NCBI GenBank assembly: GCA_049720225.1
Contig: JBNASD010000003.1
Location: 143 to 64,142 of the forward strand
Length of the DNA: 64,000 nucleotides
From: Microgenomates group bacterium
GTDB taxonomy: Bacteria; Patescibacteriota; Microgenomatia; PFEM01; JBNASD01
Direction of reading: 5' to 3'
Made by a program: the position numbers and the translations under genes. The notes under the pieces were generated by a model. It saw only the letters and a list, made by a program, of their open reading frames with translations, was not told the origin of the DNA and searched no databases. Below are positions 1-37,151 of the stretch, one piece after another; position 1 is the first letter of the stretch, and each line of letters opens with the position of its first letter.

Positions 1-93
1 TGTAACAATACCTCTTTATACAAAGTTAATCCCTTAGCTTCAGGCTGTGAAGAGACTCAATGTCCAGAGATTCCAATTCAAACTGTGCGCTAA
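1..93 (+). CDS. 3' end (partial) of secreted protein; carries the conserved Cys-containing FN3-like C-terminal module (CNNTSLYKVNPLA.GC.E.QC)
   Basis: In-frame translation CNNTSLYKVNPLASGCEETQCPEIPIQTVR*, near-identical to the C-termini of ORFs 2732..3358 and 3424..5778; stop TAA at 91-93. Confidence 0.6.
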   Translation, partial: CNNTSLYKVNPLASGCEETQCPEIPIQTVR

Positions 94-3423: not shown

Positions 3424-5778
3424 ATGCTTAAAAGAAAAGATTTTTTTCTTTTTTTTCTTATTTCTTCTTTAGGATTAATTTTAATTATTTCCAATTTTTT
3501 TCTCCAAGAAAAACCATCATTTTTTTCCAAAGCTCAAGAATTTTCTTCGGCCACTATCACTTTTCAGCAAGGAGTCAATAATTATCAAGGAACAACCAGT
3601 AGTTATATTTTTTCTTGGTATCCTGATAAAAATTTCCAATCAGAAAATAAAAATTTAATCTACACTACCTCCGCTTTTACTTTAATAAGATTTGATCTCT
3701 CTTCTCTTCCTCAAAATGCTAAAATTGACAACGCTGCTTTAACTTTATGCGCCGTTAGTAAATATGGTTCCTCAACCTCCCCGTTAAGTATAAAAGTGTT
3801 CCCACTGATAAGATCTTGGAATCCTAAAACAGTTACTTGGTTTCAGGCAGACATTTACCAGGAATGGACAAAACCAGGGGCTCAAGATCCAATTCAAGAC
3901 CGAAAAAATAATTATGTTGCTAATTTGGGTATTAACAACGTAGGTTGCTATAACTTTCCTCTCACTTCTATAGTTCAAAGATGGGTCGCTTATCCTCAAA
4001 CTAATAAGGGGATTATTTTAGCCTCTTTAGAAGGGGCGGGAGTTGGTTATTTTTTTGCCGATGAAAGTTATCCTACTGTCTCCAGCCGACCAAAACTCAC
4101 TATTTCTTATACTCTTTCTCCAACCAATAATCTTCCTCCTTATGTCAGTTTTACTTCTCCTTCTTCTGAACAATTTATCACCGATCCTTTCGCTTTAGAG
4201 GTAATCACTCAAGACGACAAAGGAATTTCCCGAGTGGAATATTATTTAGATGGCAATAAAATTACTTCTTTAACTAATCCTCCTTATATTTTTTCTCTTG
4301 TTCCTGGACATTATTCTTTGGGGACTCATCTTCTTACGGCAAAAGTTTTTGATGATATTGGACAACAAGATGAGGATAATCGTTTAGTTAATTTTTATCA
4401 AAAAGATGATGGAGTAATTACCTTAGCCCAAATTTCTGATAACCATCTTGAAAGTAGTTCTTTATATCCTCAAAGATTAACTCAGGTTCTTCAAGAAATA
4501 AAAGACGTGATCAAACCAGCCTTAATTATTGATACCGGTGATTTAGTTACCACTCCCTCTACCGCTAATTATCAGCTTTATAGTAACATTATAAATAATT
4601 TAAATTTGAAAATCCCCCTCAAAATTATTCCCGGCAATCATGATCTTACTGACGGCGGAGCCAGTTTAAAAAATGCCCTTAGCGCCGCAAAAGAAAAATT
4701 CTTTTTAGACATCGAAAATTATCGTCTTTTAGGAATTGGCTGTTACAAAATTGCTCAATATCAAAATTGGGCGGAAAATCTTTTAAAAGAAAATAAAAAG
4801 GAAATAATTTTTTCTCATTATCCCGTCGTCCTTCCTCCTGATAAAGCTTCCAATTCTTTATATCAGATGTCTCCCTCAGAAAAAACCGCTTTAATTTATT
4901 TATTTAGAAATTTTTCTCCTCTTTTTTATTTCTCCGGTCATGTCCATGAAAGATTTCTTTTAGAAGAACCAGAAACTTTAGTTCCTAACTTAAGTGTGTT
5001 AGCCACTACTCAAAAATCTGGTTACGAAATTATTACTTTAGATAATGGCATAATTTCTAGTAATGTTACCTATATTAATGAAAGTCCCCGCTGGCCAGTA
5101 GTTGTTATTACCTCTCCTCAATCATTTTATGGGTTAAATAACCAAAAAATTATCTCGGGAATAGTGAAAATAAGAGCCAAAATATTTGATCCTAATCCCA
5201 TAAATACTGTTGAGTACAAAATAGATTCTGAAAATTGGATAAGAATGGAAAAGAAAGGATTTTCAGTTTACGAAAAAGAATGGGATACCGCTGGTTATCC
5301 AGGCGTTCATACTCTTTATGTCAAAGCTATTAATTCATTGGGAAACCAAAAAATAACTCAAATCAAGGTTAATGTTTCCTCCTCTGTTCCTTCACCTACA
5401 CCTCCTTCCCCTCTACCTACAGTTACCCCCTCACCTTCTTTACCTACCAATACCCCTACACTCCTTCCTACCAACACTCCTACTCCTACTCCCACACCTT
5501 CTTCTTCCTCTTGTCCTTCTTCTTGTCCCCAAATTACTTCTTATTCTTCAGGGAAAGAAACTGATGGTACTTGTTGGGTAGAGCTTTCTTGGAAACCTGT
5601 TCCTAATGCCACTTCCTACAAAATTGTTAGAAATAGTTCTACTTACAAAACTACCACCCAAACTACTTATCGTTGGCGTTGGTTACCTTGCAACAATACC
5701 TCTTTATACAAAGTTAATCCCTTAGCTTTAGGATGCCAAGAAATTCAATGTCAAGAAGTGGCGATTAAGACTCCATAA
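3424..5778 (+). CDS. secreted calcineurin-like metallophosphoesterase with Ig-like domains, PT linker and conserved FN3-like C-terminal module
   Basis: Signal/TM N-terminus; MPP motifs ISDNHLE (DxH), DTGDLV (GDxxD), IPGNHDL (GNHD/E), SGHVHER (GHxH); two bacterial Ig-like segments; PSPTPPSPLPTVTPSPSLPTNTPT linker; C-terminus ...CWVELSWKPVPNATSYKIVRN...LPCNNTSLYKVNPLALGCQEIQCQ. Confidence 0.65.
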   Translation: MLKRKDFFLFFLISSLGLILIISNFFLQEKPSFFSKAQEFSSATITFQQGVNNYQGTTSSYIFSWYPDKNFQSENKNLIYTTSAFTLIRFDLSSLPQNAKIDNAALTLCAVSKYGSSTSPLSIKVFPLIRSWNPKTVTWFQADIYQEWTKPGAQDPIQDRKNNYVANLGINNVGCYNFPLTSIVQRWVAYPQTNKGIILASLEGAGVGYFFADESYPTVSSRPKLTISYTLSPTNNLPPYVSFTSPSSEQFITDPFALEVITQDDKGISRVEYYLDGNKITSLTNPPYIFSLVPGHYSLGTHLLTAKVFDDIGQQDEDNRLVNFYQKDDGVITLAQISDNHLESSSLYPQRLTQVLQEIKDVIKPALIIDTGDLVTTPSTANYQLYSNIINNLNLKIPLKIIPGNHDLTDGGASLKNALSAAKEKFFLDIENYRLLGIGCYKIAQYQNWAENLLKENKKEIIFSHYPVVLPPDKASNSLYQMSPSEKTALIYLFRNFSPLFYFSGHVHERFLLEEPETLVPNLSVLATTQKSGYEIITLDNGIISSNVTYINESPRWPVVVITSPQSFYGLNNQKIISGIVKIRAKIFDPNPINTVEYKIDSENWIRMEKKGFSVYEKEWDTAGYPGVHTLYVKAINSLGNQKITQIKVNVSSSVPSPTPPSPLPTVTPSPSLPTNTPTLLPTNTPTPTPTPSSSSCPSSCPQITSYSSGKETDGTCWVELSWKPVPNATSYKIVRNSSTYKTTTQTTYRWRWLPCNNTSLYKVNPLALGCQEIQCQEVAIKTP

Positions 5779-14888: not shown

Positions 14889-15848
14889 ATGTATAATCCA
14901 TCTCCGGAAACAAAAGCAATAATACCCACTTCTAACTCATCTGAAGAAGGAAGAATAAAATTAATCAGAGATATCTCAAATATATTAACGCCCGAAAATT
15001 TTTTAACGTTATGGGGTGCTTTAAGTGAATTATTTCCCGATTCTCTTAATCCTTCGGATAAAAAATCAAAAAAACCTATGATGAGGATGAACTTTCCTCA
15101 GAAAGTAATTGAATTATATCTTGTTGGTATTGACAATATAATAACCACAACAAACTCCAAAAAAGATCCAGAAACATGGATTAAAAAAGTAGTAAGAATA
15201 ACCTGTCTGCCTGATCCTCAACAACCAATTCCTCATTTTGAAATGCCTCCCGTACCAATAATAAGCCCAATAATAGACGAAGAAGATTCTTGGAAAAAAA
15301 TAATAGAAGCTTTATTAATTTCTTATATTGAAACCCTTCAGGAATTACAAATGCCATTAGAAATAGAAGTGGACCAAGTAAGTATTAATGGTTTAAAGTC
15401 TTCAGCAACTTTAGCAGTTCCCTGGCCAACACTGAAAAATGTAATAAATTCTTCACCACATTCACCTAATTCAAAACGGTGTTTTTTTCCCTATTCCATC
15501 AATTCTCCAAATACAGAATTACTTTTTCCGTGCACTATAAGCGAAAAAAATGAAAACCAACAATCTTCTCCTCAAAACTTAGGTGAATTTACTCAATTTG
15601 TAGAAATGTTATTAAGAAAAAGATTTACAGCTGACCTTAATAGGGTTTTTAATGAAATAAAAAAGATTGTTGGAGAATATTTAAGAATCGCCAATTTACC
15701 AAAAGATCAATTACCTCAATTTACTTCAGAATTATATTTAACTTATTTAAGATGGATATATCAATTGATGAGGGTTTATTTAGATGAAGTAATTTCTCCT
15801 CTTAATGATTTTTTAAAAAAAGAAAATCCTGTTAAAATTTTATGGTAA
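14889..15848 (+). CDS. hypothetical protein
   Basis: 319 aa ORF in intergenic gap, no recognisable motifs. Confidence 0.4.
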   Translation: MYNPSPETKAIIPTSNSSEEGRIKLIRDISNILTPENFLTLWGALSELFPDSLNPSDKKSKKPMMRMNFPQKVIELYLVGIDNIITTTNSKKDPETWIKKVVRITCLPDPQQPIPHFEMPPVPIISPIIDEEDSWKKIIEALLISYIETLQELQMPLEIEVDQVSINGLKSSATLAVPWPTLKNVINSSPHSPNSKRCFFPYSINSPNTELLFPCTISEKNENQQSSPQNLGEFTQFVEMLLRKRFTADLNRVFNEIKKIVGEYLRIANLPKDQLPQFTSELYLTYLRWIYQLMRVYLDEVISPLNDFLKKENPVKILW

Positions 15849-17090
15849 AATCACCGTTAAATTTATTTTTTCCCTTTTAAATAACTGACGGGTGGTTTTT
15901 AAAACTTCCTCCTTCCCTACTTTATCAATCTCTTCTAGCGCTTGGGCAAGAGTCCGAATTTTTCCCTCCAAAATTAATTGACCAGCATAGCGGTCTGCCA
16001 TCGCCTGAGAATCTTCCAACCTTAAAATTAAATGCCCTTTAAGCATTTCTTTTGCCTTGGTCAATTCCTTATCTTCCACTTTTTTGGTCGCTAATTTTTC
16101 CATTTCTTCTTTCACTAATTTAATAGCTTGGTTAACCTTATCAAGACAAACACCTGCCCGACAAACTAAATAACCGGAATCAGTATTTGGTTCATATTCA
16201 GTAGTAATATAATAAGCTAGCCCTCGCTTTTCCCGAATTTCCAAAAATAACCGCGAACTCATTCCTCCGCCTAAAATTGCCGACAAAACCGCGGTTGACC
16301 AACGAAACTGGTCTTTTAAAGAAGGTGCCGGTACTCCTAAACAAAAATGGGCTTGCTCAGTTTTTTTGCGAATAATTTTTTGCTTTGCTTTTTTTTGATT
16401 AAGAAAGGCGTAATTGATATTTTTTGATATTTTTTTACCTACTTTTGGAAGCTGACCAAAATAATCCTCAATTAACTTAATTAATTTATTTGTCTTTTTT
16501 AACTCTTCTTTTTGGCCAGCAATTACTAAAACCATATTTTGAGCAAAATAAAGCTGACGCAAATAAGTTAAAAAGTCATCTCTTTTAAGAGCAACTACCG
16601 TTTCTTTTTCTCCAGCAATATCCCAACCCATGGAATTATCACCATAAAAAAGCCGTTCAAACTCCACCGCTACCTTAGTCATTGGCACATCTTCCCGCAT
16701 ATTAATTTCTTCAATAATTACCCCTTTCTCCCGCTCAATTTCTTCCTCTTTAAATAAAGAATTGGTAAGCATATCAGAAAGAATATCCAAAGCCAGTGGT
16801 AAATATTTTGCCGGTAATTTCACCCAATAGCCAGTAAATTCTTTATCGGTATAAGCATTAAAAATCCCCCCTACTCCCTCAATTTCACTGGCAATCTCTT
16901 TGGTAGTTGGCCGTTTTTTTGTGCCTTTAAAAGCCATATGCTCCAAAAAATGGGAAATGCCATTAATTTGCCGAGTTTCATAACGACTTCCCGCCCCCAC
17001 GCCAACCATCACTGTTACCGATTCCACCGAAGACATCGGGACTAAAACTACCCGCAAACCATTTTTAAGAGTAAATAAAGAATAATCCAT
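15840..17090 (-). CDS. M16-family zinc peptidase (insulinase-like)
   Basis: Inverted zinc motif HFLEHMAFKGT (HxxEH) near N-terminus; 416 aa. Confidence 0.85.
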   Translation of the reverse strand: MDYSLFTLKNGLRVVLVPMSSVESVTVMVGVGAGSRYETRQINGISHFLEHMAFKGTKKRPTTKEIASEIEGVGGIFNAYTDKEFTGYWVKLPAKYLPLALDILSDMLTNSLFKEEEIEREKGVIIEEINMREDVPMTKVAVEFERLFYGDNSMGWDIAGEKETVVALKRDDFLTYLRQLYFAQNMVLVIAGQKEELKKTNKLIKLIEDYFGQLPKVGKKISKNINYAFLNQKKAKQKIIRKKTEQAHFCLGVPAPSLKDQFRWSTAVLSAILGGGMSSRLFLEIREKRGLAYYITTEYEPNTDSGYLVCRAGVCLDKVNQAIKLVKEEMEKLATKKVEDKELTKAKEMLKGHLILRLEDSQAMADRYAGQLILEGKIRTLAQALEEIDKVGKEEVLKTTRQLFKREKINLTVILP

Positions 17091-17092
17091 CT

Positions 17093-17545
17093 TAAATCCT
17101 AAATTCTAATATCTAAATTCTAAACAAATTCAAAATCCAAAATAATTAAAAACTACTTTGTTTTTTCTAAAATTGAACCAAAAATTTTCATTAGTTGTGT
17201 TGTCTCTTCAATTAATTCAATTTTCTCTTTTTTTGTTCTAAAATCTGAATTGAGTAATTTTAACCAAAGTCGAGTTTCTTTTGCTTCCTTCCAATATCAT
17301 TAAAAAATCTTTTTTGCTCAAAGCCTCGTTAGCCTCAATATAATTAGCAGTAACCGAACCAGAAGAATTAATCAATTGTCTTCCATCTTCAACATTGTTC
17401 GCAGTTTTAGGTAATCTTGCTACAAATTCCCGACATTTTTTGGCGAAAATAAAAGTTCTTTCTTCTAAATCATATTTTTGAATTTTGGTCATTTGAATTT
17501 AAATATTACTTAGAAATTAGGATTTAGGATTTTGGGTTTTTACAT
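17093..17545 (-). mobile_element. small inverted-repeat-flanked cassette carrying a four-helix-bundle (23S rRNA IVS-type) protein gene
   Basis: Left arm 17093-17147 (AAATCCTAAATTCTAATATCTAAATTCTAAA...AAAATCCAAAAT) is the imperfect reverse complement of right arm 17508-17539 (TTAGAAATTAGGATTTAGGATTTTGGGTTTTT); lies in the argS-M16 intergenic gap; a 24-nt identical stretch recurs at 27576-27599. Confidence 0.45.
17153..17492 (-). pseudogene. four-helix bundle protein (TIGR02436 / 23S rRNA intervening-sequence protein family) with +1 frameshift
   Basis: Frame A MTKIQKYDLEERTFIFAKK...SVTANYIEANEALSKKDFLMIL then ends; the family-typical C-terminus KEAKETRLWLKLLNSDFRTKKEKIELIEETTQLMKIFGSILEKTK* is in the +1 frame; one extra G in ATATTGGAAGGAAGC explains it. 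Confidence 0.6.
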
Positions 17546-19525
17546 TCTCTTCGGGCATTCTATTCCCAACAATTCTAACCCATTTTTAATAATCTGCCCT
17601 ACCGCTGAAGTTAAAAGCAAACGAAAATGGCGAATATTTTCTTTCTGTTTTTCTTTTAATTTCTCGGAAACTTCATTTACTTCAGGTTCTAAAATTGGCC
17701 ATTTATTATAAAAGAAATTAAATTTCCCTGCCAAATCATATAAATAATTACAAATTAGATTAGGAGCAAAATTTTGCCCGGCTTCCAAAATTACTTCCGG
17801 AAACTTATAAATTTCTCGCAACAAAGCAATTTCTTCAGAATTTAATTTTAGAGATTTAAAATTTGAGCTTTGCGCTTTGAGCTTTGCGCTTTGAGCTTTG
17901 CGAAGCACACTTTGCGTCCGCGCGTAAGTATATTGTAAATAAGGACCGGAGTTCCCCTCCAAGGACAACGATTCATCAATATCAAAATAAATAGTGGTTT
18001 CTCGGGCAAACTTTAAAAGACTATATTTCAATGCTCCTCCTGCTACTTTTTCCGCCAAATTATCAAGTTGGTTTTTGGATAATTTTCCTCGTAATTCCTG
18101 ATTTGAGGCTTTAATAATCTCCAAAGCTTTGTTTTTTAATTCTTCCAGAATTTCATCGGCCATTACTACATCTCCTTTTCGGGTGGCCATTTTCCCTCCG
18201 CCTTTAAAATTAATTAAGGCATAACCTAAATGAAACAATTTTTCTTTTTTGGCGATTCCCAGTTGTTCGCAAATCGTAAATAATTGTTTAAAATATAAAC
18301 TTTGTTCTTCGCCAATACACCAAATATATAAATCTGAGGGAAATTTTTGGCACTTAAGTTTTGTTAATGCTAAATCTTGAGTGATATACAAAGCGGTTCC
18401 GTCAGATTTTTCTACCACCGTATCGGGTAAGTTATATTTTGATAGATTAGTTACCACCGCTCCTTCACTAAGGCGAAAAACCCCTTTTTTTAATCCCAGT
18501 TTGACAATTTCTTTTCCCAATTTATAGTGATCTGATTCATACCAAACCCAATCATGAATACTCCCTACTCGTTTATAAGTTTGGGCATAGCCATCAGCTG
18601 ACCAAGAAAGAATTTTTTGCCACAAAATTAATAGCGTTCCTTTTTTTGCTTTTCGGGGCGAAGAATATTTTTCTGCTTCTTCTTCCCAAGTCTTCAACAT
18701 CTCTCCTATTTCTTTTTTTACTCTCTCTGATAATTCATAAGCGCGGGAACCTAAAACATACCAACGTAAATTAGCGTGGTCGGGTTTAAGTTGTAAATCT
18801 TTATAAGTTAACCATTTTTTGGGATTTCTTAACCATTCTTCAAGTAGCTCCTGCCATTTCTTTTTAGCAATCACTTTTTTTATCTGCTGAGTGGTAATTT
18901 CCCGGAAATTTTTAAGGTGGGTTTTAGTTAAACCTGAGTTTTTGGAAGCAAAAACCAAATAACCCCAAAGCGCTTTACAAATATGAACTCCCCGATCGTT
19001 AACGACGCAGTCTTTAGTCACCTTTGCCCCCAAACTTTCCAAAATTCTAGACACCGTCATTCCTAAAAAATTATTCCGCAGATGCCCTAACATAATCGTT
19101 GTTTGGGGATTAGGACTGGTGTGTTCCAATAAAATTTTTTTACCCGCTAAAACAGAGGTTTGTCCAAATTTTTCTTTTTTTCTTAGCGCTTCAATAGCCT
19201 GATTGATAAGATAATCATTTTGGAGCCATATATTTATAAAACCTGGAGAAGCAACCTCTATTTTTCCTATAAAATCAGGAACGCCTTTTTCTCGAAAGGC
19301 ATTAACAATTGCATTGGCGAAATCTAAAGGATTAGAATATTTTTTTCCCAAAGAAGAAAAAAGTCTTAAAGCAACACCAGTGGCATAATCTCCATGGTCT
19401 TTTTCCAGAGGATGCTCTAAGGTAATAAAAGAGATATCTAATTTTTCTCCGGTAATTTTTTTAACCGCTTCCCCTAAAAGACAACGAATTTGATAATTTA
19501 AAGTTTCTTTATCTTCAAATTTCAT
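17540..19525 (-). CDS. argS: arginine--tRNA ligase
   Basis: Class I HIGH-type motif TIMLGHLRNNFLG, ArgS anticodon-binding C-terminus; 661 aa. Confidence 0.85.
   Translation of the reverse strand: MKFEDKETLNYQIRCLLGEAVKKITGEKLDISFITLEHPLEKDHGDYATGVALRLFSSLGKKYSNPLDFANAIVNAFREKGVPDFIGKIEVASPGFINIWLQNDYLINQAIEALRKKEKFGQTSVLAGKKILLEHTSPNPQTTIMLGHLRNNFLGMTVSRILESLGAKVTKDCVVNDRGVHICKALWGYLVFASKNSGLTKTHLKNFREITTQQIKKVIAKKKWQELLEEWLRNPKKWLTYKDLQLKPDHANLRWYVLGSRAYELSERVKKEIGEMLKTWEEEAEKYSSPRKAKKGTLLILWQKILSWSADGYAQTYKRVGSIHDWVWYESDHYKLGKEIVKLGLKKGVFRLSEGAVVTNLSKYNLPDTVVEKSDGTALYITQDLALTKLKCQKFPSDLYIWCIGEEQSLYFKQLFTICEQLGIAKKEKLFHLGYALINFKGGGKMATRKGDVVMADEILEELKNKALEIIKASNQELRGKLSKNQLDNLAEKVAGGALKYSLLKFARETTIYFDIDESLSLEGNSGPYLQYTYARTQSVLRKAQSAKLKAQSSNFKSLKLNSEEIALLREIYKFPEVILEAGQNFAPNLICNYLYDLAGKFNFFYNKWPILEPEVNEVSEKLKEKQKENIRHFRLLLTSAVGQIIKNGLELLGIECPKRM
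17864..17901. repeat. 14-nt tandem repeat (GAGCTTTGCGCTTT x ~2.7) inside argS
   Basis: Directly visible; in frame as a 42-nt block, encodes AKLKAQSAKLKAQS. Confidence 0.6.
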
Positions 19526-25307: not shown

Positions 25308-26243
25308 TTAATTAACCAGATACCATTTTTTTCCATCACTTACTATCTCAATTTCTCCCTCTAAATCAGTGCGGTAAACTTCTATTCCTAATGATTTTAA
25401 TCTTTCTAAAACTTCAGCAGTGGGATGTCCCCACCGATTATTGGCTCCCACGGAAATTATTGCTATTTTAGGATTGATGGTTTTTAAAAACTCTTCAGAA
25501 CTGGAATATTTGCTTCCGTGATGAGGTATTTTTAAAACTTCAATTTCCCTAGGATTAAATTGATAGAAAGAAATAATTTTCTTCTCCTCTTTTATTCCAA
25601 TATCACCAGTTAATAAAGCTTGAAAATCACCAAACTCTAAAAGACTAACAATGGAAGTTTCGTTGAGATTACCTTTAAATGAAACAAAGGTAGTTCCCAA
25701 CACCGAAGAATTCGAAACCAAATTTTCCTTAGCAGACCAATCTTTAGTTTGCCAAATAATTTCTTCTCCTAATCTCTCTTCGGGAAATAAAATTTCTAAA
25801 TTAATTTCGCCAATTTTTATTCTTTCTCCTTGATGGGGGCTATAAACGGGAATTGCCCTTTTGACTACTTCTTCCCGAAATTTTTGAAAAACTCCACTTT
25901 CTGCTATTAAAGAATTACTAATAATCTGTAATATTTTATATCTTTCTATAACAGAAACTAAACCGGTTAGATGATCAAATTCCGGATGAGTTAAAATCAC
26001 TAACTCAATTTGGCGATCCCAAAAGGGCAAATGTTTGCTTAAGCAGATTAAAACTTTTTCGTTAGGTCCACCGTCTACTAAAATTTGGTTTTTCCCTTTG
26101 GTAATTAAAATTGCGTCTCCCTGTCCTACATCGCAAAAAACTAAATGAAGTTTATTATCGGGAAATTGAAAAACCGCTCCCCAAATTAAACCTGTTAATA
26201 AAAATAGAAAAATGAAAATAATCCTAAAAAAATTACGACTCAT
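25308..26243 (-). CDS. comEC: ComEC/Rec2-type metallo-beta-lactamase domain protein (C-terminal ComEC module encoded as a separate gene)
   Basis: LHLVFCDVGQGDAILITKG...LVDGGP and HPEFDHLTG MBL motifs; likely ATG start at 26243 (MSRNFFRIIFIFLFLL, own TM/signal); track start at 26282 is a TTG. Confidence 0.7.
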   Translation of the reverse strand: MSRNFFRIIFIFLFLLTGLIWGAVFQFPDNKLHLVFCDVGQGDAILITKGKNQILVDGGPNEKVLICLSKHLPFWDRQIELVILTHPEFDHLTGLVSVIERYKILQIISNSLIAESGVFQKFREEVVKRAIPVYSPHQGERIKIGEINLEILFPEERLGEEIIWQTKDWSAKENLVSNSSVLGTTFVSFKGNLNETSIVSLLEFGDFQALLTGDIGIKEEKKIISFYQFNPREIEVLKIPHHGSKYSSSEEFLKTINPKIAIISVGANNRWGHPTAEVLERLKSLGIEVYRTDLEGEIEIVSDGKKWYLVN

Positions 26244-26305
26244 ATTAATTGACAATTTTGGACAGGTGTCTGAAAATGTCAAAAATTTAAATTTAAATTT
26301 TAACT

Positions 26306-27550
26306 TTATTTTTTTCTTTTTTTAGAAAAATACCAAAAAATTCCCAAAATCAAATAATACCCTATCTCTAACCACAAAGGAAAATTTTCTGTTTTAATTA
26401 CTCCCCATGGAATTCTGGCAAAAAAATCAATAATTTTAATCATTAAAGTCAACGGTACCCAAGCAAACCAACTAGCAATTTGGGCAAAAGAGTGACAAAA
26501 TAAACCAAAAAATAAGATAATAAGACCTAAAATCATTAATAAGGGGATAAAGGGTAACACCAAAAGATTAACTAACGGGGAAAACAAACTAATTTGACCA
26601 AAATTGGCCAACAAAACCGGTAATACTCCCATTTGAGCCCCTAACGTTGTTTTTAAATTTTCCCCTGCCGCTGGTATATTAAAAATTTTTCCTTTTAAAC
26701 AAGGACCAATCAATAAAATTCCCCCCGTCGCTAAAAAAGATAATTGAAATCCCCTATCAAAATATATCAAAGGATTAATTAGTAGCATAACTCCCGCTGA
26801 AAAAATCAATGCCCTTAAAGCGTCTTTTTCTCTTCCTAAAAATTGTGCCAAATAAGTTAAGCTTCCCATAATAGCCGCCCGTACAATTGGTGGCTCTCCA
26901 CCCGCCATTAAGGTATAAATCAATATTCCTAAAAAAGAAATCACTAATGCATATTGCCGACGGATAAATTTAGTTAAAAAAACAATTAAGAGCCCAGCAA
27001 TCACGGTGATATTATATCCCGAGGCAACCACGAGATGAATCGTACCTGTTTTCCGCAAATTTTGCGTAAATTTTGCCGGCATTTGTTTTTTGGCTCCTAA
27101 AACAATGCCGGAAATTAAGCTTGCTTGAGGCTCAGGTAACACGGAAGAAAAAGTCTTTTCTAATCGCTGGCGAAAAAATAAAATTCCCTTAACTAATTTT
27201 CTTTGATTAATTAAACTCTCCTCTTCAGAAACAACATGGATGGTTGGATAATTAAATACAAACGACTTTTGAAATTTATTTATCAGCATTACGGTTGGTT
27301 TGCCAATAATTTCTAATTTTTGACCATAAAAATACTCAGGAAAAGGCTCGGTAACCACCAAAAATTGACCTAACCTAATGATCTGTTTTGATGCACTAAG
27401 ATAAGGTTGTTGGGAAACACGGGCGGTAACTTTTAAAGAAACACCTGGAGGAAGATTTTTAATTAAAGATAAAGAGGTTTGCCATAAACGAAAAAGGTAA
27501 AAAGAAAGAAAAACAATTAAAAAAACAAACCATCGCATATAATAAACCAA
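26306..27550 (-). CDS. comEC: ComEC/Rec2 competence channel, N-terminal membrane (DUF4131 + competence) part
   Basis: Polytopic; TGTIHLVVASGYNITVIAGLLIVFL matches the ComEC 'competence domain' core. Confidence 0.75.
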   Translation of the reverse strand: MVYYMRWFVFLIVFLSFYLFRLWQTSLSLIKNLPPGVSLKVTARVSQQPYLSASKQIIRLGQFLVVTEPFPEYFYGQKLEIIGKPTVMLINKFQKSFVFNYPTIHVVSEEESLINQRKLVKGILFFRQRLEKTFSSVLPEPQASLISGIVLGAKKQMPAKFTQNLRKTGTIHLVVASGYNITVIAGLLIVFLTKFIRRQYALVISFLGILIYTLMAGGEPPIVRAAIMGSLTYLAQFLGREKDALRALIFSAGVMLLINPLIYFDRGFQLSFLATGGILLIGPCLKGKIFNIPAAGENLKTTLGAQMGVLPVLLANFGQISLFSPLVNLLVLPFIPLLMILGLIILFFGLFCHSFAQIASWFAWVPLTLMIKIIDFFARIPWGVIKTENFPLWLEIGYYLILGIFWYFSKKRKK

Positions 27551-27575
27551 AATTTAAAAGAAATTAATTAAAGTT

Positions 27576-27640
27576 TTGAATTTTGGTCATTTGAATTTTG
27601 AAATTGTTTAGGATTTAGAATTTTGAATTTAGAATTTTTT
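27576..27640. repeat. solo remnant of the four-helix-bundle cassette (24-nt identity to 17477-17500 plus GGATTTAGAATTTTGAATTTAGAATTTTTT arm)
   Basis: TTTGAATTTTGGTCATTTGAATTT identical to the start-codon region of the 17153..17492 gene (minus strand encodes MTKIQ then stops); AT-repeat arm resembles the cassette inverted repeat. Confidence 0.5.
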
Positions 27641-29413: not shown

Positions 29414-31960
29414 TTAGCTAACCACAAAATTAATCAATTTCCCGGGAATAAAAATTACTTTACGAATTTCCTTACCTACAAAGTATTTTACCACGCCCGG
29501 TTCATTTTTGGCTAATTTTTCTACTTCACTTTGAATTTTTGCTTTTTCGCTTTCAATTTTAATCTGTCCGCGAACTTTTCCGTTAACTTGAATAACCACC
29601 ACCACCTCTTTTTCTACTATCAAATAAGGATCATATTTTGGCCAAGGTTGTTGATGAATTGAAAATTCATTTCTTAAAATCTCTACCCAAATTTCCTCAG
29701 TTAAATAAGGGGCAAAGGGTGATAAAAGTTTTAAAAACTCACCTGCTTCTTTTTTACTCAATACCATTTTTGGTTTTTGCCAAAGATTTAAAAATTCCAT
29801 TAAGGCAGAAATAGCGGTATTATGAGCTAAACGATTGATATCTTCGGTTACCTTTTTAATTGTTTGGTGAAAGGGAGTCACTAACTCTTCACTTGTTTTA
29901 TCAGCAATTTTTTCTGTCTGCTGATAAATTCGCCAAATGCGGTTTAAAAATCGCCACACTCCCTCCAATCCTTGATAGCTCCACGGCATAGTCGCATCAT
30001 AAGGACCCATAAAACATAAATAAGTCCGTAAAGTATCGGCACCAAATTTTTCCACCACTTCATCAGGATTAACAACATTTCCCCGCGATTTACTCATTTT
30101 TTCTCCATCCTCCCCTAAAATTACTCCATGCTGACGGCGAGCTTGGTAAGGTTCTGGATAAGGAACAACACCAATATCGTATAAAAATTTATGCCAAAAA
30201 CGAGAATATAAAAGGTGTAAGGTGGTGTGCTCCCCTCCTCCTAAATAAATATCTACCGGTAACCAATATTTTAATTTTTCAAAATCAGCCGGCACTTGAT
30301 TATTTTTTGGGTCGCAATAACGCCAATAATACCAAGAAGAACCTGCCCAGTTAGGCATAGTATCGGTTTCCCGCCGCGCTGGTCCACCACAATGAGGACA
30401 GGTAGTATTTACCCAATTTTTAATATTGGCTAAAGGTGACTCCCCTGTTTCCGTTGGCTGATATTTTTCTACCGGAGGCAATTCTAGTGGTAATTCATCT
30501 TCCGGAAGAGGAAACCAACCAGCCATATTTTCAATTTTAAATTTTAAATTTAAAATTTTAAATTTTTTTCCTTCTGGAGTATCCCACCAGCTAATCCCCT
30601 TTTGGGCACATTTTTCGCAATAAACCATCGGGATTGGCTCACCCCAATAATGCTGACGGGAAAAAATCCAATCACGCAAATGATAATTAACCGCCCGTCT
30701 TCCCCACTTTTTCTCTTCTAAATAATCAATAATTTTTTTAATTGCTTCCCGCGCTGGCAATCCGTTCAAAAAATCAGAATTAAAAACCACTCCATTATCA
30801 ATTTCCTCAAAAGCCCCTCGGCTAAAATCCCACTCTCCTTTTTGCGGTTTAATCACCGGAATAATTTCCAAACCATATTTTTTGGCAAAATCAAAATCCC
30901 GTTGGTCATGAGCCGGTACCCCCACTACCATTCCTGTTCCGGCGGTTAGCACGACAAAATCCGCTACCCAAATTGGCAATTTTTTTCCTGTCAGTCGATT
31001 AATTGCATACCAACCGGTAAACACTCCTGTTTTTCCTTTCTCTAGGGCAGTCCGCTCTAATTCTGATTTCTTTTTAGATATTTTGATATATTCTTCTATC
31101 TGAGAACGATTTTCGGGGGTAATTAATTTTTCTAAAAAGGGATGTTCTGGAGCAATAACGATAAAAGTGGCCCCAAAATTAGTATCTGGCCGGGTAGTAT
31201 AACAAGAAACCATCAATTTTTCAGGATGGGGATTGCCTTTTTCGTCTACCACCGGATAATCAATAATAATTCCCTCACTCCGACCAATCCAATTAATTTG
31301 CGATTCTTTAACATAATCGGGGTAATCAACCAATTTTAAATCTTCAATTAATCGATCCGCATAGGCGGTAATTCGTAACAACCATTGAGATTGCATTCGC
31401 CGTTCTGCGTCGGTTCCGCACCGCTCACATTTTCCGGCGACAATTTCTTCATTGGCCAAAATAATTTTACAGCGGGGACACCAACCCACCGGCATTTGCG
31501 CTTTATAAGCCAAACCATGCTTAAAAAATTGAATAAATATCCATTGAGTCCAGCGATAATAATTAGGGTCGGTGGTATTAATTTCTCGCTCCCAGTTATA
31601 AGCAAAACCTAAACGCTTCATTTGGGATCGAAAACGATCGGTATTTTGTTTAGTAGCTACCGTTGGGTGAATTCCAGTTTTAATCGCGTAATTTTCGGTT
31701 GGTAACCCAAAAGCATCCCAACCCATCGGATACAAAACATTTTTTCCCTCCATTCTTTTTTGACGAGCCAAAACATCCATTATCGTCATTGTGAAAGCAT
31801 GACCAATATGAAGACCGCTTCCGGAAGGATAGGGAAACTCTACCAACGCGTAAAATTTTTTATCACGGGGAGCTTTTTCCTCAACTTCCCAAAAAAGTTT
31901 TTTTTCTTCCCAAATTTTTTGCCATTTTGGTTCAATTTCTGAAGGGTGATATGGCTTCAT
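29414..31960 (-). CDS. leuS: leucine--tRNA ligase (with lineage-specific insertions)
   Basis: HIGH motif YPSGSGLHIGHAF, KMSKS motif EKMSKSRGN, editing-domain and C4 zinc knuckle (CPRC...CERC); 848 aa. Confidence 0.9.
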   Translation of the reverse strand: MKPYHPSEIEPKWQKIWEEKKLFWEVEEKAPRDKKFYALVEFPYPSGSGLHIGHAFTMTIMDVLARQKRMEGKNVLYPMGWDAFGLPTENYAIKTGIHPTVATKQNTDRFRSQMKRLGFAYNWEREINTTDPNYYRWTQWIFIQFFKHGLAYKAQMPVGWCPRCKIILANEEIVAGKCERCGTDAERRMQSQWLLRITAYADRLIEDLKLVDYPDYVKESQINWIGRSEGIIIDYPVVDEKGNPHPEKLMVSCYTTRPDTNFGATFIVIAPEHPFLEKLITPENRSQIEEYIKISKKKSELERTALEKGKTGVFTGWYAINRLTGKKLPIWVADFVVLTAGTGMVVGVPAHDQRDFDFAKKYGLEIIPVIKPQKGEWDFSRGAFEEIDNGVVFNSDFLNGLPAREAIKKIIDYLEEKKWGRRAVNYHLRDWIFSRQHYWGEPIPMVYCEKCAQKGISWWDTPEGKKFKILNLKFKIENMAGWFPLPEDELPLELPPVEKYQPTETGESPLANIKNWVNTTCPHCGGPARRETDTMPNWAGSSWYYWRYCDPKNNQVPADFEKLKYWLPVDIYLGGGEHTTLHLLYSRFWHKFLYDIGVVPYPEPYQARRQHGVILGEDGEKMSKSRGNVVNPDEVVEKFGADTLRTYLCFMGPYDATMPWSYQGLEGVWRFLNRIWRIYQQTEKIADKTSEELVTPFHQTIKKVTEDINRLAHNTAISALMEFLNLWQKPKMVLSKKEAGEFLKLLSPFAPYLTEEIWVEILRNEFSIHQQPWPKYDPYLIVEKEVVVVIQVNGKVRGQIKIESEKAKIQSEVEKLAKNEPGVVKYFVGKEIRKVIFIPGKLINFVVS

Positions 31961-32771: not shown

Positions 32772-33508
32772 AATATAAAAAATACCATATAAAATATTTT
32801 TCCTTCTTCATTTTTGCTATTTGCTATTTACTATTTACTATTCCCATCGGGGCCCAATCAAAAATTCGCTCAGATAATTACGAAATTACCTGGCCTAATG
32901 TTAATATGGGTGGAGGAACTCCAGGGTCAACTAACTATCAATTAGGGGTAACCACCGGTCAGACGGCTCCCGGTCTTTATTCTTCCACCGGTTATAAAGT
33001 CCGCGCGGGGTTCCAATATATTCATTCAATTATTCCCTTTTCTTTTTCTATCTCCGATATTTCTGTTGATTTTGGCACTCTCTCTCCCCAAACGCCAATT
33101 ACCCAACAAGCGACTTTAAAAGTTTCTGTAGGAGGTGCAGGTGGTTATGTAGTTAAAGTTTCTGAAAACCATCCTCTCACCTCCACGGCCGGCTCTACTA
33201 TTCCCGATACAAATTGTGACAATGGTAATTGTAGCGAAAGTCAAGCCCAAGTTTGGGCGCAAAATACTACTTATGGTTTTGGTTTTAATATGAGCGGAAC
33301 GGATATTCCTTCTGATTTTATTAATTCTTCGTATTTTCGCCAATTTGCTGACCGCTCTTTAGGAGAATCTCCTCAAACGATTATGAGCGGACCAAATGTT
33401 GGTCGAAATAAACAGGCAACTATTACTTATAAAGTCAATATTTCCCCGCTTCAATCGGCAGGAGTTTATCAAAATATTTTAACTTTTTTAGCGATACCGA
33501 CATACTAA
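32768..33508 (+). CDS. secreted surface protein, type 'A' of duplicated two-gene module (putative WxL-like/Csc partner)
   Basis: Signal peptide; paralogous to 34652..36088 (shared NCDNGNCSE/TCDNGSCTE block and C-terminal ...TIMS..GP...Y.....P.. tail); start overlaps previous stop. Confidence 0.5.
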   Translation: MKYKKYHIKYFSFFIFAICYLLFTIPIGAQSKIRSDNYEITWPNVNMGGGTPGSTNYQLGVTTGQTAPGLYSSTGYKVRAGFQYIHSIIPFSFSISDISVDFGTLSPQTPITQQATLKVSVGGAGGYVVKVSENHPLTSTAGSTIPDTNCDNGNCSESQAQVWAQNTTYGFGFNMSGTDIPSDFINSSYFRQFADRSLGESPQTIMSGPNVGRNKQATITYKVNISPLQSAGVYQNILTFLAIPTY

Positions 33509-34570
33509 ATGAAATTTAAAATTTTAAATAGCAAATTTAAGATTTACATTTTAAATTTAAAATTTTTACTAATAACTGGTTGCTTTTTGTTTCTAATTAT
33601 TATTCCGGCAAAAGCACAGGAACTTTCTTTGGGAATTTGGCCGCCCCTACTTGAGGTAATGATTCAACCGGGAAAAGGAATTACTCAGGTTTATAAAGTA
33701 ATTAACCAAAGCGAAACTGATTTGGTATTAACCAGCAAAATCGTTCCTTTTACCCCAGAAGACGAATTAGGAACGCCGAAATTAAATTTAGAAAAGCAAG
33801 TGGATTATTTAGATTGGTTTTCATTTCAAAATGCGGATTTAAAACTGGGAGAAAAATTTTTATTGCCAAAAGGAAAAGAACAACAATTAGTTTTAAAAAT
33901 TAAAATTCCTCCTCACGCCCCAGAAGGAGACTATTACCTTACTTTACTTTTAGAAACTGTCCAAATTCCGGGAATGTATCTTCCTTCTCAAAGTGGCGGC
34001 CAAATTGAGGCAAAAATTGGGGGAAATATTCTTTTGACCGTTTCCCAAACCGGTAAACCGAAAATCCAAGCAAAAATTGAAGAGTTCAAACTTAAAAATT
34101 TTCAATTTTCTGTTTTCGGCTTAAGATTTATCGATTCTTTCAATCAACCACAATTTTTAATCCGAGTTCGCAATACCGGTCAAGCCTTTTTTAAACCCCA
34201 AGGAACAATTACGGTTAATGGTTGGTTTGGTCAAAAATGGGAATTAACTTTACTTCCGGAAAATGTTTTAGTAAATTCCACTCGCCAAATTAACTGCCAA
34301 GGATTGCCTTTAAAATTAGAAGAAACAACAAAGAATGAACCTCAAAGTTATTCCCCTACCCCTTGTCAACTTTCAAATAATTTTCTTTTAGGAAAATATA
34401 CCGCTAAGTTAGAATTTAATCTTGAAGGAGAAAAAGAAAAATATCAGGCTCTTTTAATTTTTTGGGCCATCCCAATAAAACTGATTATTGGCATTGGTAT
34501 TGTTTTCTTTTTTTTGATAATATTTTTTCAAAGGGTTTTCCCTAGGTGTCAATATAAATCCACTCCTTAG
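33509..34570 (+). CDS. DUF916/DUF3324-like cell-surface protein with C-terminal TM anchor (CscA-like), type 'B'
   Basis: MKFKILNSKFKI leader + signal; LSLGIWPPLLEVMIQPGKGITQVYKVINQSETDLVLTSKIVPFTPEDELGTP resembles the DUF916 N-domain pattern; C-terminal TM IKLIIGIGIVFFFLIIFF; paralog of 36088..37107. Confidence 0.5.
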   Translation: MKFKILNSKFKIYILNLKFLLITGCFLFLIIIPAKAQELSLGIWPPLLEVMIQPGKGITQVYKVINQSETDLVLTSKIVPFTPEDELGTPKLNLEKQVDYLDWFSFQNADLKLGEKFLLPKGKEQQLVLKIKIPPHAPEGDYYLTLLLETVQIPGMYLPSQSGGQIEAKIGGNILLTVSQTGKPKIQAKIEEFKLKNFQFSVFGLRFIDSFNQPQFLIRVRNTGQAFFKPQGTITVNGWFGQKWELTLLPENVLVNSTRQINCQGLPLKLEETTKNEPQSYSPTPCQLSNNFLLGKYTAKLEFNLEGEKEKYQALLIFWAIPIKLIIGIGIVFFFLIIFFQRVFPRCQYKSTP

Positions 34571-36088: not shown

Positions 36089-37107
36089 TGAAAGATAAAA
36101 TATTAAATAGCAAATATAAAAAATACTTTTCTTTATTAATATTTTCTATTTTCTATTTGCTATTTGCTATCCGAGCCGCAAACGCCCAAAATACTACCCA
36201 CTTAATTGTCGCTCCTTCCCGCCAAGAAATTCTGGTTGAACCAGGAGAAACTACTGCAATAAATATTAAATTTCTTAATCAGACGGATGCTCCCATTCCC
36301 GGAACAGTGGGAGCAGTTGATTTTATTGTCGAAGATAAAGAAGGAACACCTACTTTTATTGAAGGAACACCAGTAATTACCGGTTTAACTCAGATTTCTT
36401 CTCGTTTTTCCGCCGCTTCTTGGTTTGAACTTCCTTATGACCGCGCCACTATTCCCGCCAACGGCAAGGTTTTAATTCAAGCAAAAATTCGTGTGCCGGT
36501 AGATGCTCGCCCAGGTGGAAGATATGTCGCTATTTATTTCGAACCGAGTACTACCCCCTCTCCCCCCTCCGGATTGGCAAAAGAAGGAACAACGCCAGTA
36601 GCCTCCCGAATTGTTGGTTTAGTTTATCTGCGTGTCGCCGGACCAATTAAAGAAGACGCTTACGTTGTCCGTTTTGGTGGACCCAATTTCTCCCAATATG
36701 GACCAATTACCATTCTTACGGAAATTCTTAACCGCGGCGATTACCACATCACTCCTAAGGGAGTAATTAAAATTTACAATATGTTTAATCAAGAAATAGA
36801 TCGGCAAAAACTGGAAGAAAAAAATATCTTTCCCGATGCTTCAAGAGTCTATGAAAATAAGGTTGGCCAAAAATGGATGTTTGGTAAGTATAAAGCAGAA
36901 TTAAGTGCTTCTTATGGAGAAACAGGAAAAGCTTTAACCGCTACCACTTATTTCTGGGTAATTCCTTACAAAGAAATTATTGCTGGCGTTTTAGCAATTG
37001 CAATTATAATTCTTCTGGCAATTATCCTTTACCGCCGATTAATAAAACGCCAGTTGGAACTTCAGGAAAGGGTAAAGGAATTGGAAAAGAAGCTTAAGGA
37101 AAAGTAA
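36088..37107 (+). CDS. DUF916/DUF3324-like cell-surface protein with C-terminal TM anchor (CscA-like), type 'B' paralog
   Basis: MKDKILNSKYKKY leader + signal; THLIVAPSRQEILVEPGETTAINIKFLNQTDAPIPGTVGAVDFIVEDKEGTP; C-terminal TM IIAGVLAIAIIILLAIIL + coiled-coil tail. Confidence 0.5.
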   Translation: MKDKILNSKYKKYFSLLIFSIFYLLFAIRAANAQNTTHLIVAPSRQEILVEPGETTAINIKFLNQTDAPIPGTVGAVDFIVEDKEGTPTFIEGTPVITGLTQISSRFSAASWFELPYDRATIPANGKVLIQAKIRVPVDARPGGRYVAIYFEPSTTPSPPSGLAKEGTTPVASRIVGLVYLRVAGPIKEDAYVVRFGGPNFSQYGPITILTEILNRGDYHITPKGVIKIYNMFNQEIDRQKLEEKNIFPDASRVYENKVGQKWMFGKYKAELSASYGETGKALTATTYFWVIPYKEIIAGVLAIAIIILLAIILYRRLIKRQLELQERVKELEKKLKEK

Positions 37108-37110
37108 TTC

Positions 37111-37151
37111 CTCAATTTTCAATTTTCAATTTACAATTTTTAATTTTCAAC
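37111..37151. repeat. heptanucleotide tandem repeat (CAATTTT-like x5) in intergenic leader
   Basis: CTCAATTTTCAATTTTCAATTTACAATTTTTAATTTTCAAC. Confidence 0.5.

Follow-up and report, generated by a model that had tools for sequence, protein, structure and literature searches.

A probable fossil of an intervening-sequence-type gene cassette with tandem-heptamer arms in a Microgenomates genome

The argS–M16 junction

The DNA examined here, called the window throughout, is a 64,000-nt stretch of contig JBNASD010000003.1 from the Microgenomates group bacterium assembly GCA_049720225.1, with a GC content of 34%. On its minus strand argS (17540–19525) is followed by a small open reading frame (ORF) and by a gene for an M16 peptidase (15840–17090). 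The space between the two larger genes is taken up by a 446-nt cassette (17094–17539, minus strand), in which inverted arms of tandem heptamers enclose the remains of a gene of the four-helix-bundle (4HB) family TIGR02436/PF05635, a gene also carried by intervening sequences (IVSs) of 23S rRNA. The cassette fills the junction from the argS stop codon (17540–17542) to 3 nt before the M16 start codon (17088–17090). A partial second copy lies between comEA and comEC. A preliminary reading made from the letters of the window alone, here termed the sequence-only reading, had proposed a small mobile or IVS-like element at the first site and a degraded copy of it at the second.

Read along the minus strand, the cassette opens with a 5' arm of four tandem heptamers, AAACCCA AAATCCT AAATCCT AATTTCT (17512–17539), which matches a 5'-arm profile of the wider family described below (E = 1.6e-9). 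It continues with a linker, AAGT+AATATTT (17501–17511), a mutated version of the family's AAAC+AATATCA, and with a 24-nt core, AAATTCAAATGACCAAAATTCAAA (17477–17500), that holds the 4HB start codon (17490–17492). The 4HB pseudogene (17153–17492) is followed by an inner 3' inverted segment, TTTTGGATTTTGAATTT (17126–17142), which pairs with the core region, and by the 3' arm, GTTT plus the inverted heptamers AGAATTT AGATATT AGAATTT AGGATTT (17094–17125; family profile E = 1.4e-8). The final AGGA of this arm lies 7 nt upstream of the M16 ATG, from which the arm itself is separated by 3 bases.

The imperfect inverted repeats claimed in the sequence-only reading are genuine: positions 17094–17134 and 17492–17532 are complementary over 41 nt at 80% and stand 357 nt apart. 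The arms are not generic AT-rich sequence, since each is composed of four heptamers, with AAATYCT as the unit and a period of 7 according to Tandem Repeats Finder. A two-unit heptamer pattern matched the window seven times against 1.33 expected, six of the seven matches falling at the two sites, and a profile built from the family recovered only three arm units in the entire 64 kb, two at the first site and one at the second. The 24-mer TTTGAATTTTGGTCATTTGAATTT, which had been noted as an identical stretch covering the start codon at both sites, occurs exactly twice in the window (17477–17500 and 27575–27598); no match to it, even with three mismatches permitted, was obtained in any of 100 shuffled windows. 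In the minimum free energy fold of the minus-strand RNA the arms pair around the whole ORF at −86.4 kcal/mol, compared with −73.4 ± 4.8 for shuffled sequences (z = −2.7; 0 of 100 shuffles equally good). The plus-strand fold is similar.

A search for regulatory signals at both window loci yielded no terminator-like site, and promoter-like sites at chance level. Target-site duplications next to the arms, a check proposed in the sequence-only reading, were sought and none was found. The Rfam search located no rRNA gene within the 64-kb window, and at gathering thresholds the only matches in the window and 15 compared loci were tRNAs and rRNAs, so that no Rfam family covers the element.

The four-helix-bundle pseudogene

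The ORF that starts at the core ATG stops after 84 amino acids. Relative to the intact homologues at three of the loci compared with the window (such loci carry L-numbers; here L095, L151 and L178), the gene has an 11-nt deletion near 17292 that removes four residues (R-IKI-) and shifts the frame. The first frame runs from 17492 to about 17292, and the conserved C-terminal half, KEAKETRLWLKLL...MKIFGSILEKTK (47 amino acids, ending EKTK), reads in a different frame past the deletion to a stop codon at 17153–17155. No intact ORF of the usual length (~110–125 amino acids) is therefore present, and the gene is dead, a pseudogene of the TIGR02436 family.

Once repaired, the protein (112 amino acids) scores 49.4 bits against TIGR02436 (cut-off 24; E = 4e-13). 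Its PF05635 score of 31.7 bits falls slightly under the cut-off of 33.8 because of the four deleted residues, and its best homologues all carry PF05635. It also matches the sequence of the solved chain 2rld_A (E = 1.6e-7), so that a four-helix-bundle fold is putative. The sequence-only reading was thus right to place a 4HB-family gene in the argS–M16 gap and overlooked that this gene is frameshifted.

The second site

The copy between comEA and comEC (27575–27638, minus strand) is a solo 5' half-element. It consists of a heptamer array (27610–27638; AAAATTCT AAATTCA AAATTCT AAATCCT), the linker AAAC+AATTTCA (27599–27609) and the core (27575–27598), where similarity ends. Its arm matches the family 5'-arm profile with E = 6.7e-10, and the two sites share a gapless 74-nt direct repeat (17468–17541 and 27566–27639) at 78% identity. 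Each copy begins directly past the stop codon of its upstream gene, argS at the first site and comEA at the second. A search for a 3' arm at the second site found none, and the fold there is not significant as a hairpin (z = −0.17).

The sequence-only reading had taken the half-element for a degraded copy with a truncated coding part. A 5' half with array and core is indeed what is found; the truncation is not needed to explain it, as the core ATG and first codons (MTKIQ) are part of the conserved arm and occur in gene-less copies as well, so the site need not ever have contained a gene. Loss of a gene with a remnant of this kind does occur. L095 and L090 are the same locus (93–97% identical), and in L090 a 279-nt deletion took the ORF and left the 5' arm with 12 codons. 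The second site could accordingly be a gene-bearing copy after deletion or half of a gene-less copy.

A family of elements in metagenomes

The exact 24-mer was found in at least 120 metagenome contigs, and the results in this section describe the matches listed, which represent about 110 distinct contexts with flank GC from 0.29 to 0.61. Nearly all share one layout: four heptamers, AAAC, the core, a variable centre, GTTTTGAACATTTGAATTT...GTTT and four inverted heptamers. The 5' arms are built from AAATCCG, AAGCACG, AAATTCG, AAATCCT and similar units. This recurrence of ordered parts disposes of the concern, voiced in the sequence-only reading, that the 24-mer and arms might turn up elsewhere as chance low-complexity sequence.

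Most matches are gene-less hairpins of 100–280 nt. Among 54 two-armed elements, 49 measure 102–278 nt and five measure 416–470 nt. An arm most commonly has exactly four heptamers, as is the case at the 5' end of 32 and at the 3' end of 39 of the 54 elements. The two arms change in concert: in 33 of 33 elements, 5' heptamers ending in G go with CGGATTT in the 3' arm and those ending in T with AGGATTT. Complementarity of an arm to its own partner hardly exceeds that to the arms of other elements (mean 18.4 versus 17.9 of 28), all arms being alike. The eight gene-less members that we folded each form a single long hairpin, with z from −2.5 to −7.1.

The sole type of gene found inside these elements encodes a 4HB protein. 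An intact ORF runs from the core ATG in L095, L151 and L178; in L123 the ORF is cut by the contig end, L152 holds a fragment, and in L200 the ORF begins at the equivalent ATG of the opposite arm. Positions are mostly intergenic, many elements lying flush between the stop codon of one gene and the start codon of the next. The 24-mer had zero matches in viral contigs, so nothing suggests phage carriage. A profile scan of the compared loci, which are short contigs, revealed few extra copies.

Elements in L112, L115, L158, L109 and L168 are often nested in another, unrelated palindrome, and small GC-rich hairpins often sit in their loops. This suggests insertion into hairpin tips or growth layer by layer.

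Link to rRNA intervening sequences

One family member is a true IVS: in L116, the tip of helix 9 in a bacterial 23S rRNA gene is interrupted by a 153-nt copy of the element. The same gene holds a second heptamer palindrome downstream of helix 9 (L116, 1–147). In L190 there is a further insertion in helix 45, and the 5S rRNA matches in L190 and L143 are 147 nt long instead of 120, which suggests an insertion there too.

The closest known system is the S23p-type rRNA IVS, as described from Coxiella burnetii and Leptospira. The Coxiella IVS, 428–444 nt long and located in helix 45, ends in a 28-bp stem, cleaved in vitro by RNase III, and contains a decaying S23p (4HB) ORF with tandem GACAGAT heptamers of variable copy number upstream of it; it is seen as a selfish element of unknown mobility (PMC4990558). 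In rRNA genes of the Candidate Phyla Radiation (CPR), IVS sites are reported to be occupied by numerous short insertions that lack an ORF, and in a few cases by insertions with 23S_rRNA_IVP ORFs (PMC11270868). The window cassette resembles S23p-type IVSs in size (~430–450 nt) and protein family, in terminal inverted repeats that enclose the ORF (a stem of ~20–28 bp or more in IVSs, ~28 bp in Coxiella, and arms of 4 × 7 = 28 nt here), in heptamers upstream of the ORF and in decay of the ORF by deletion. It has these structural features without the defining location: both window copies lie between protein-coding genes, at junctions of mRNA operons rather than at a 23S helix tip (helix 9, 25 or 45). 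The present family differs further in its regular 4 × 7-nt arm with a conserved 24-nt core and in that most of its copies have no gene. Moreover, the Coxiella heptamers are described only upstream of the ORF, and RNase III cleavage of the present family is suggested by analogy.

Turnover at the junctions

Comparison with related genomes, as the sequence-only reading had advised, showed the argS–M16 junction to be occupied in several ways. By M16 identity the relatives form the tree ((window, L228), ((L229, L233), L231)). The junction is empty in the closest relative, L228 (M16 77% identical to that of the window), where the argS stop abuts the M16 start. L233 and L232 (M16 71%) hold a cassette of the same type with heptamers, KKYDLEERTAKFAEE, IFSAIIRKTK and a 3' arm, from which ~230 nt of the gene have been deleted. 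The 4HB gene found there in L229 and L230 (M16 71%) has several frameshifts and is from another subfamily, scoring 41.1 bits on the TIGR04258 suffix domain and 23.3 bits on TIGR02436, and L231 (M16 71%) has LemA and an ORF of unknown type. The M16 proteins of L229 and L233 are 84% identical. Taken together, the tree and the junction states imply at least three gains, losses or replacements. Along with the recurrence of the family and the helix 9 copy, this turnover supports the small mobile or IVS-like element proposed at the outset.

In distant relatives (M16 46–50% identical) argS is mostly still next to the M16 gene; gaps of 50–200 nt are seen in some and unrelated insertions in others. Among GTDB species representatives the closest M16 is 49% identical, too remote to serve as an empty-site comparison; the argS–M16 adjacency is ancestral and the gap variable. 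In more distant Microgenomates (L004, L006, L007, L011, L015 and L016) the gap holds unrelated insertions of 0.6–4.8 kb. The argS–M16 junction is a general hotspot.

The comEA–comEC junction varies likewise. It is empty (1 nt) in L237, contains a 52-nt half-array in L236 and holds complete gene-less heptamer palindromes with other units in L234 and L235. A 4HB gene is present at this junction in none of the relatives compared. ComEC itself is split in the window into two ORFs (25308–26282 and 26306–27550), one for the Competence domain and one for the metallo-beta-lactamase domain. The split recurs in relatives, and in L234 a methyltransferase gene separates the halves. In L235 (3690–4220) and L237 (3791–4227) the metallo-beta-lactamase gene is followed by a 4HB gene of 176 amino acids of the suffix-domain type, whose flanking tandem repeats are 9 nt long (CAATTRGTC) instead of heptamers.

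Gene-bearing cassettes in other phyla and on plasmids

Homologues of the repaired protein number 5241 at E <= 1e-5. The best of them are 60–67% identical and mostly ~120 amino acids long, and many begin with MTKIQNSKQYDLEERT or a closely similar sequence; among the named hosts are Phycisphaerae, Nitrospirota, WOR-3, Curtissbacteria and Patescibacteria. Three loci were compared in their surroundings: etfB–4HB–etfA in Phycisphaerae, fabA-like–4HB–ketoacyl synthase in Nitrospirota and aminotransferase–4HB–epimerase in Curtissbacteria. At each of them four heptamers and AAAC stand upstream of the ATG, GTTT and four inverted heptamers stand downstream, and the 4HB gene points the same way as the operon.

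More distant 4HB genes (29–38% identity) were read on plasmids of cultured bacteria, where flanking heptamer arrays recur with other units, mostly inverted and of about 4+4 heptamers. Inverted heptamers flank the gene on both sides in Nostoc punctiforme and Nostoc sp. ATCC 53789 (AATTCGC ×4 and GCGAATT ×4 in each), Nostoc flagelliforme (TTCAAAA ×4 and TTTTGAA ×4), Dolichospermum (CGTAATT and AATTACG), Nostoc commune (GGAAGTC and GACTTCC) and Planktothrix (CGTAAAT and ATTTACG). The array is confined to the upstream side in Aulosira (TTCAAAA) and to the downstream side in Euhalothece (an ACTGGTC run); the AGTAAAA runs of Anabaena and Nostoc TCL26-01 do not form a simple inverted pair, and in Treponema saccharophilum CTCTCCG units stand in direct orientation on both sides.

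A strict period-7 array lies within 200 nt of 12 of the 17 distant plasmid 4HB genes. The background is 18 such arrays in 939 kb of unrelated bacterial DNA, which corresponds to ~80-fold enrichment next to 4HB genes (Poisson P ~1e-18 for 12 of the 20 4HB genes tested). In N. punctiforme PCC 73102, whose 4HB gene (NPUN_RS35560) is intact and whose AATTCGC ×4 arms are perfect, plasmid pNPUN02 has two strict arrays in 50 kb, both flanking the 4HB gene. The isoelectric point was 8.9–9.6 for all 4HB proteins examined except that of Treponema (7.7), and proteins with a common heptamer unit are 77–95% identical. Several of the plasmid genes lie inside defence operons (L211, L218, L216, L215, L223, L213 and L219), at positions such as cas2/cas1, next to cas1, DISARM drmD/MmeI, hsdS/hsdR and helicase/N6-methylase.

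Interpretation and alternatives

We interpret the window feature as the fossil of a selfish gene cassette of the IVS type, one carried along in host operons, a reading to which we assign a probability of about 0.78. It accounts together for the anatomy of the cassette, its membership in a family with an rRNA copy, the junction states, the decay of copies through deletions and the frequent presence of heptamer arrays beside 4HB genes. We envisage the intact cassette as a promoterless gene of ~120 codons for a basic 4HB protein, bracketed tightly by inverted arms of four tandem heptamers (28 nt) and an inner inverted segment, with the start codon inside the 5' arm. Lying between two neighbouring genes of an operon of the host (argS and M16 in this case), it would be co-transcribed with them, and in the transcript the arms could base-pair as a long, imperfect stem that encloses the entire ORF, its outer 28 bp coming from the heptamers. 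By analogy with 23S rRNA IVSs carrying the same gene, RNase III most likely cuts this stem. The cassette RNA would thereby be released while the cistrons on either side stay functional, and this would account for the tolerance of insertions both in operons and at the tips of rRNA helices. For the basic 4HB protein, the heptamer arrays are the probable binding target. Most copies would eventually lose the gene and persist as hairpins of 100–280 nt or as half-arms.

Several observations weigh against this reading. No recombinase, transposase or reverse transcriptase was found in or near the element, and no target-site duplication surrounds any of the 54 two-armed elements among the matches listed, so mobility is deduced only from distribution and from turnover at one junction, a pattern that recombination with foreign DNA could also produce. 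Orientation relative to the flanking genes is biased only ~2:1 (60 of 93 among the matches listed; p = 0.007). Mismatches between the arms of the same matches show no excess of G:U over A:C (127 versus 138; p = 0.54) and hence no sign of selection for pairing at the level of the sense RNA as opposed to DNA. Two 4HB proteins that are 77% identical may have the same or quite different heptamer units, which argues against a simple recognition code between protein and repeat. The metagenome sample, chosen by the exact 24-mer, is biased to one subfamily. Finally, the window copy is decayed, with arms 80% complementary, and may have no present function.

The best-surviving alternative is a host regulatory module, in which the 4HB protein is a DNA- or RNA-binding regulator, the arrays are its operators and gene-less arrays are further sites of the regulon. 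The constant array size of 4+4 heptamers, the basic character of the proteins and the association of gene and array across several phyla agree with this idea, as do the paired tandem heptanucleotides of Geobacter, families of four to five units both intergenic and inside genes, which have been taken for regulator sites (PMC2700814). It fits poorly with copies in rRNA helices and in frame inside coding genes, with arms that remain where the gene is often dead or deleted, and with a junction that is empty or filled differently in sister lineages. Nor does it sit easily with the range of hosts that have the 24-mer (GC 0.29 to 0.61 among the matches listed) or with a window that contains only three arm units per 64 kb and no intact gene. 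We consider a regulatory module improbable.

An ordinary intergenic signal, that is, a terminator or attenuator hairpin or a downstream promoter with a small gene inside by chance, is very unlikely. Each of the two sites does follow a stop codon directly and precede a start codon, and the final AGGA of the 3' arm could be the ribosome-binding site of M16. Against this stand the absence of terminator-like sites and the chance level of promoter-like sites at both loci, an AT-rich stem that spans 357 nt and lacks a U-tail, a nearest relative that does without any spacer, and the occurrence of the element inside rRNA. Chance low complexity, with slippage generating heptamer runs in AT-rich DNA and an inverted layout by coincidence, could draw on the other period-7 arrays of the window, which have different units (at 30527, 32813, 33512, 36140 and 37111), but we find it barely credible given that no shuffle matched the 24-mer, that the profile search gave only three arm units in the window, that the ordered parts recur in more than 100 unrelated contigs among the matches listed and that strict arrays are ~80-fold enriched next to 4HB genes.

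An equally remote idea sees the 4HB gene as the leftover of a diversity-generating retroelement (DGR), an Avd-type accessory gene whose reverse transcriptase and template repeat have been lost. It draws on the membership of Avd proteins in the same 4HB superfamily and on the abundance of DGRs in CPR genomes; however, the neighbours on both sides are housekeeping genes (M18 peptidase, NDK, ClpB-like, S41/DnaJ) with no reverse transcriptase among them, no pair of template and variable repeats was found in the window next to the Avd-like gene, and homologues in other phyla stand alone in etf, fab and sugar operons.

Returning to the selfish cassette, a broader proposal is that 4HB genes and tandem-heptamer arrays are the two halves of one selfish class that crosses phyla, and that classical 23S IVSs, the short tandemly repeated repetitive (STRR) sequences of cyanobacteria and the heptamer elements of Geobacter and Beggiatoa all belong to this system. 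Its sole protein would be a small, non-catalytic, nucleic-acid-binding bundle that recognises 4 × 7-nt arms and spreads hairpin copies, with or without the gene, into hairpin tips and operon junctions with the help of host enzymes (RNase III, perhaps a polymerase or recombinase). We offer this tentatively, as a conjecture that may well be wrong.

Three puzzles have for decades been treated separately: the ORF-bearing 23S IVSs and their spread, the role of the very common 4HB family and the tandem heptamer repeats. The evidence ties them together, as the same gene and the same kind of arm are found in rRNA helices, in housekeeping and defence operons and, as arms alone, in gene-less hairpins. 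The association extends from CPR bacteria to Planctomycetota, Nitrospirota, cyanobacteria and spirochaetes, and the question can be tested in cultured strains such as Nostoc punctiforme PCC 73102. For annotation it matters that operons are interrupted by such cassettes, that essential genes acquire in-frame repeats from them and that they enlarge the intergenic regions of reduced genomes.

Comparison with other known systems

Arrays of heptamers have been reported without an explanation as STRR sequences from cyanobacteria and as TAACTGA repeats from Beggiatoaceae and cyanobacteria (PMC4679880). In Geobacter metallireducens, tandem heptanucleotides, four or five to an element, make up families whose members are paired and lie both between genes and inside them (PMC2700814). 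The arms described here are of the same kind, with at least three tandem 7-nt units located between or within genes; the published arrays likewise often have 4–5 units and some are paired and inverted (PMC4679880, PMC2700814). Arrays of such type flank 4HB genes on the plasmids of Nostoc, Anabaena, Planktothrix and Euhalothece. The authors of those studies proposed translational or global regulation and made no tie to 4HB genes or IVSs. In the literature, with subscription journals poorly covered, we found neither a report of the 24-mer nor a paper connecting heptamer arrays with 4HB genes or with IVSs; an earlier description of the element elsewhere is possible.

MITEs, the miniature inverted-repeat transposable elements, and REPIN–RAYT systems are similar in that short palindromic non-coding copies, intergenic and forming hairpins, far outnumber the gene-bearing copy flanked by the same repeats. 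The terminal inverted repeats, small size and many copies of a MITE are all seen here. Unlike these systems, the element has no transposase or RAYT, only a small non-catalytic 4HB gene; target-site duplications and a parent insertion sequence whose transposase gene shares the repeats were not found, and its arms are tandem heptamers rather than unique terminal repeats.

Avd proteins are small, basic four-helix bundles that bind nucleic acid with a partner enzyme. The present element differs from DGRs in that no reverse transcriptase or template and variable repeats were found, and no heptamer arms are reported for DGRs. Integron attC sites and Xer/dif modules were considered as analogues and set aside by comparison with what we take to be their consensus sites.

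Rickettsia palindromic elements also insert in frame into protein-coding genes. They are comparable to the in-frame heptamer runs found here in argS, leuS and a histidine-kinase gene (L165), and differ in that their sequences are unrelated and that they are not known to have an associated gene or heptamer periodicity.

Other repeats in the window

The in-frame array in argS (17862–17902, minus strand) consists of GCTCAAA/GCGCAAA units in the variable linker of the protein and encodes KAQSAKLKAQS after YARTQSVLRK. Its unit also forms the outer palindromic layer around elements in L085, L089, L109, L132, L133 and L186. The linker length is within the range of relatives, and a link of this array to the cassette is uncertain. 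In leuS (29414–31960, minus strand) an in-frame period-7 array of ATTTTAA units (30527–30566) encodes KFKILNLKFKIEN. Elsewhere, a member of the family lies in a leuS-like gene (L193), and a half element lies in frame in the ATPase domain of the histidine kinase (L165).

Four other period-7 arrays, with the units TTTGCTA, AAATTTA, TATTTKC and CAATTTT, are located at 32813–32842, 33512–33565, 36140–36170 and 37111–37150. Three of them encode hydrophobic N-terminal segments of ORFs without a Pfam match, two of which share a similar 5' end; one is intergenic. A GC-rich palindrome, CCCACCTAAGGGGTGGG, occurs seven times at gene ends (~21990, 22935, 34560, 38520, 46180, 50490 and 52190) and probably represents terminator hairpins or a REP-like (repetitive extragenic palindromic) repeat unrelated to the heptamer family. 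An 84-nt direct repeat with 82% identity connects the edge of the window (1–84) with the 3' end of the ORF at 3424–5778 (5689–5772).

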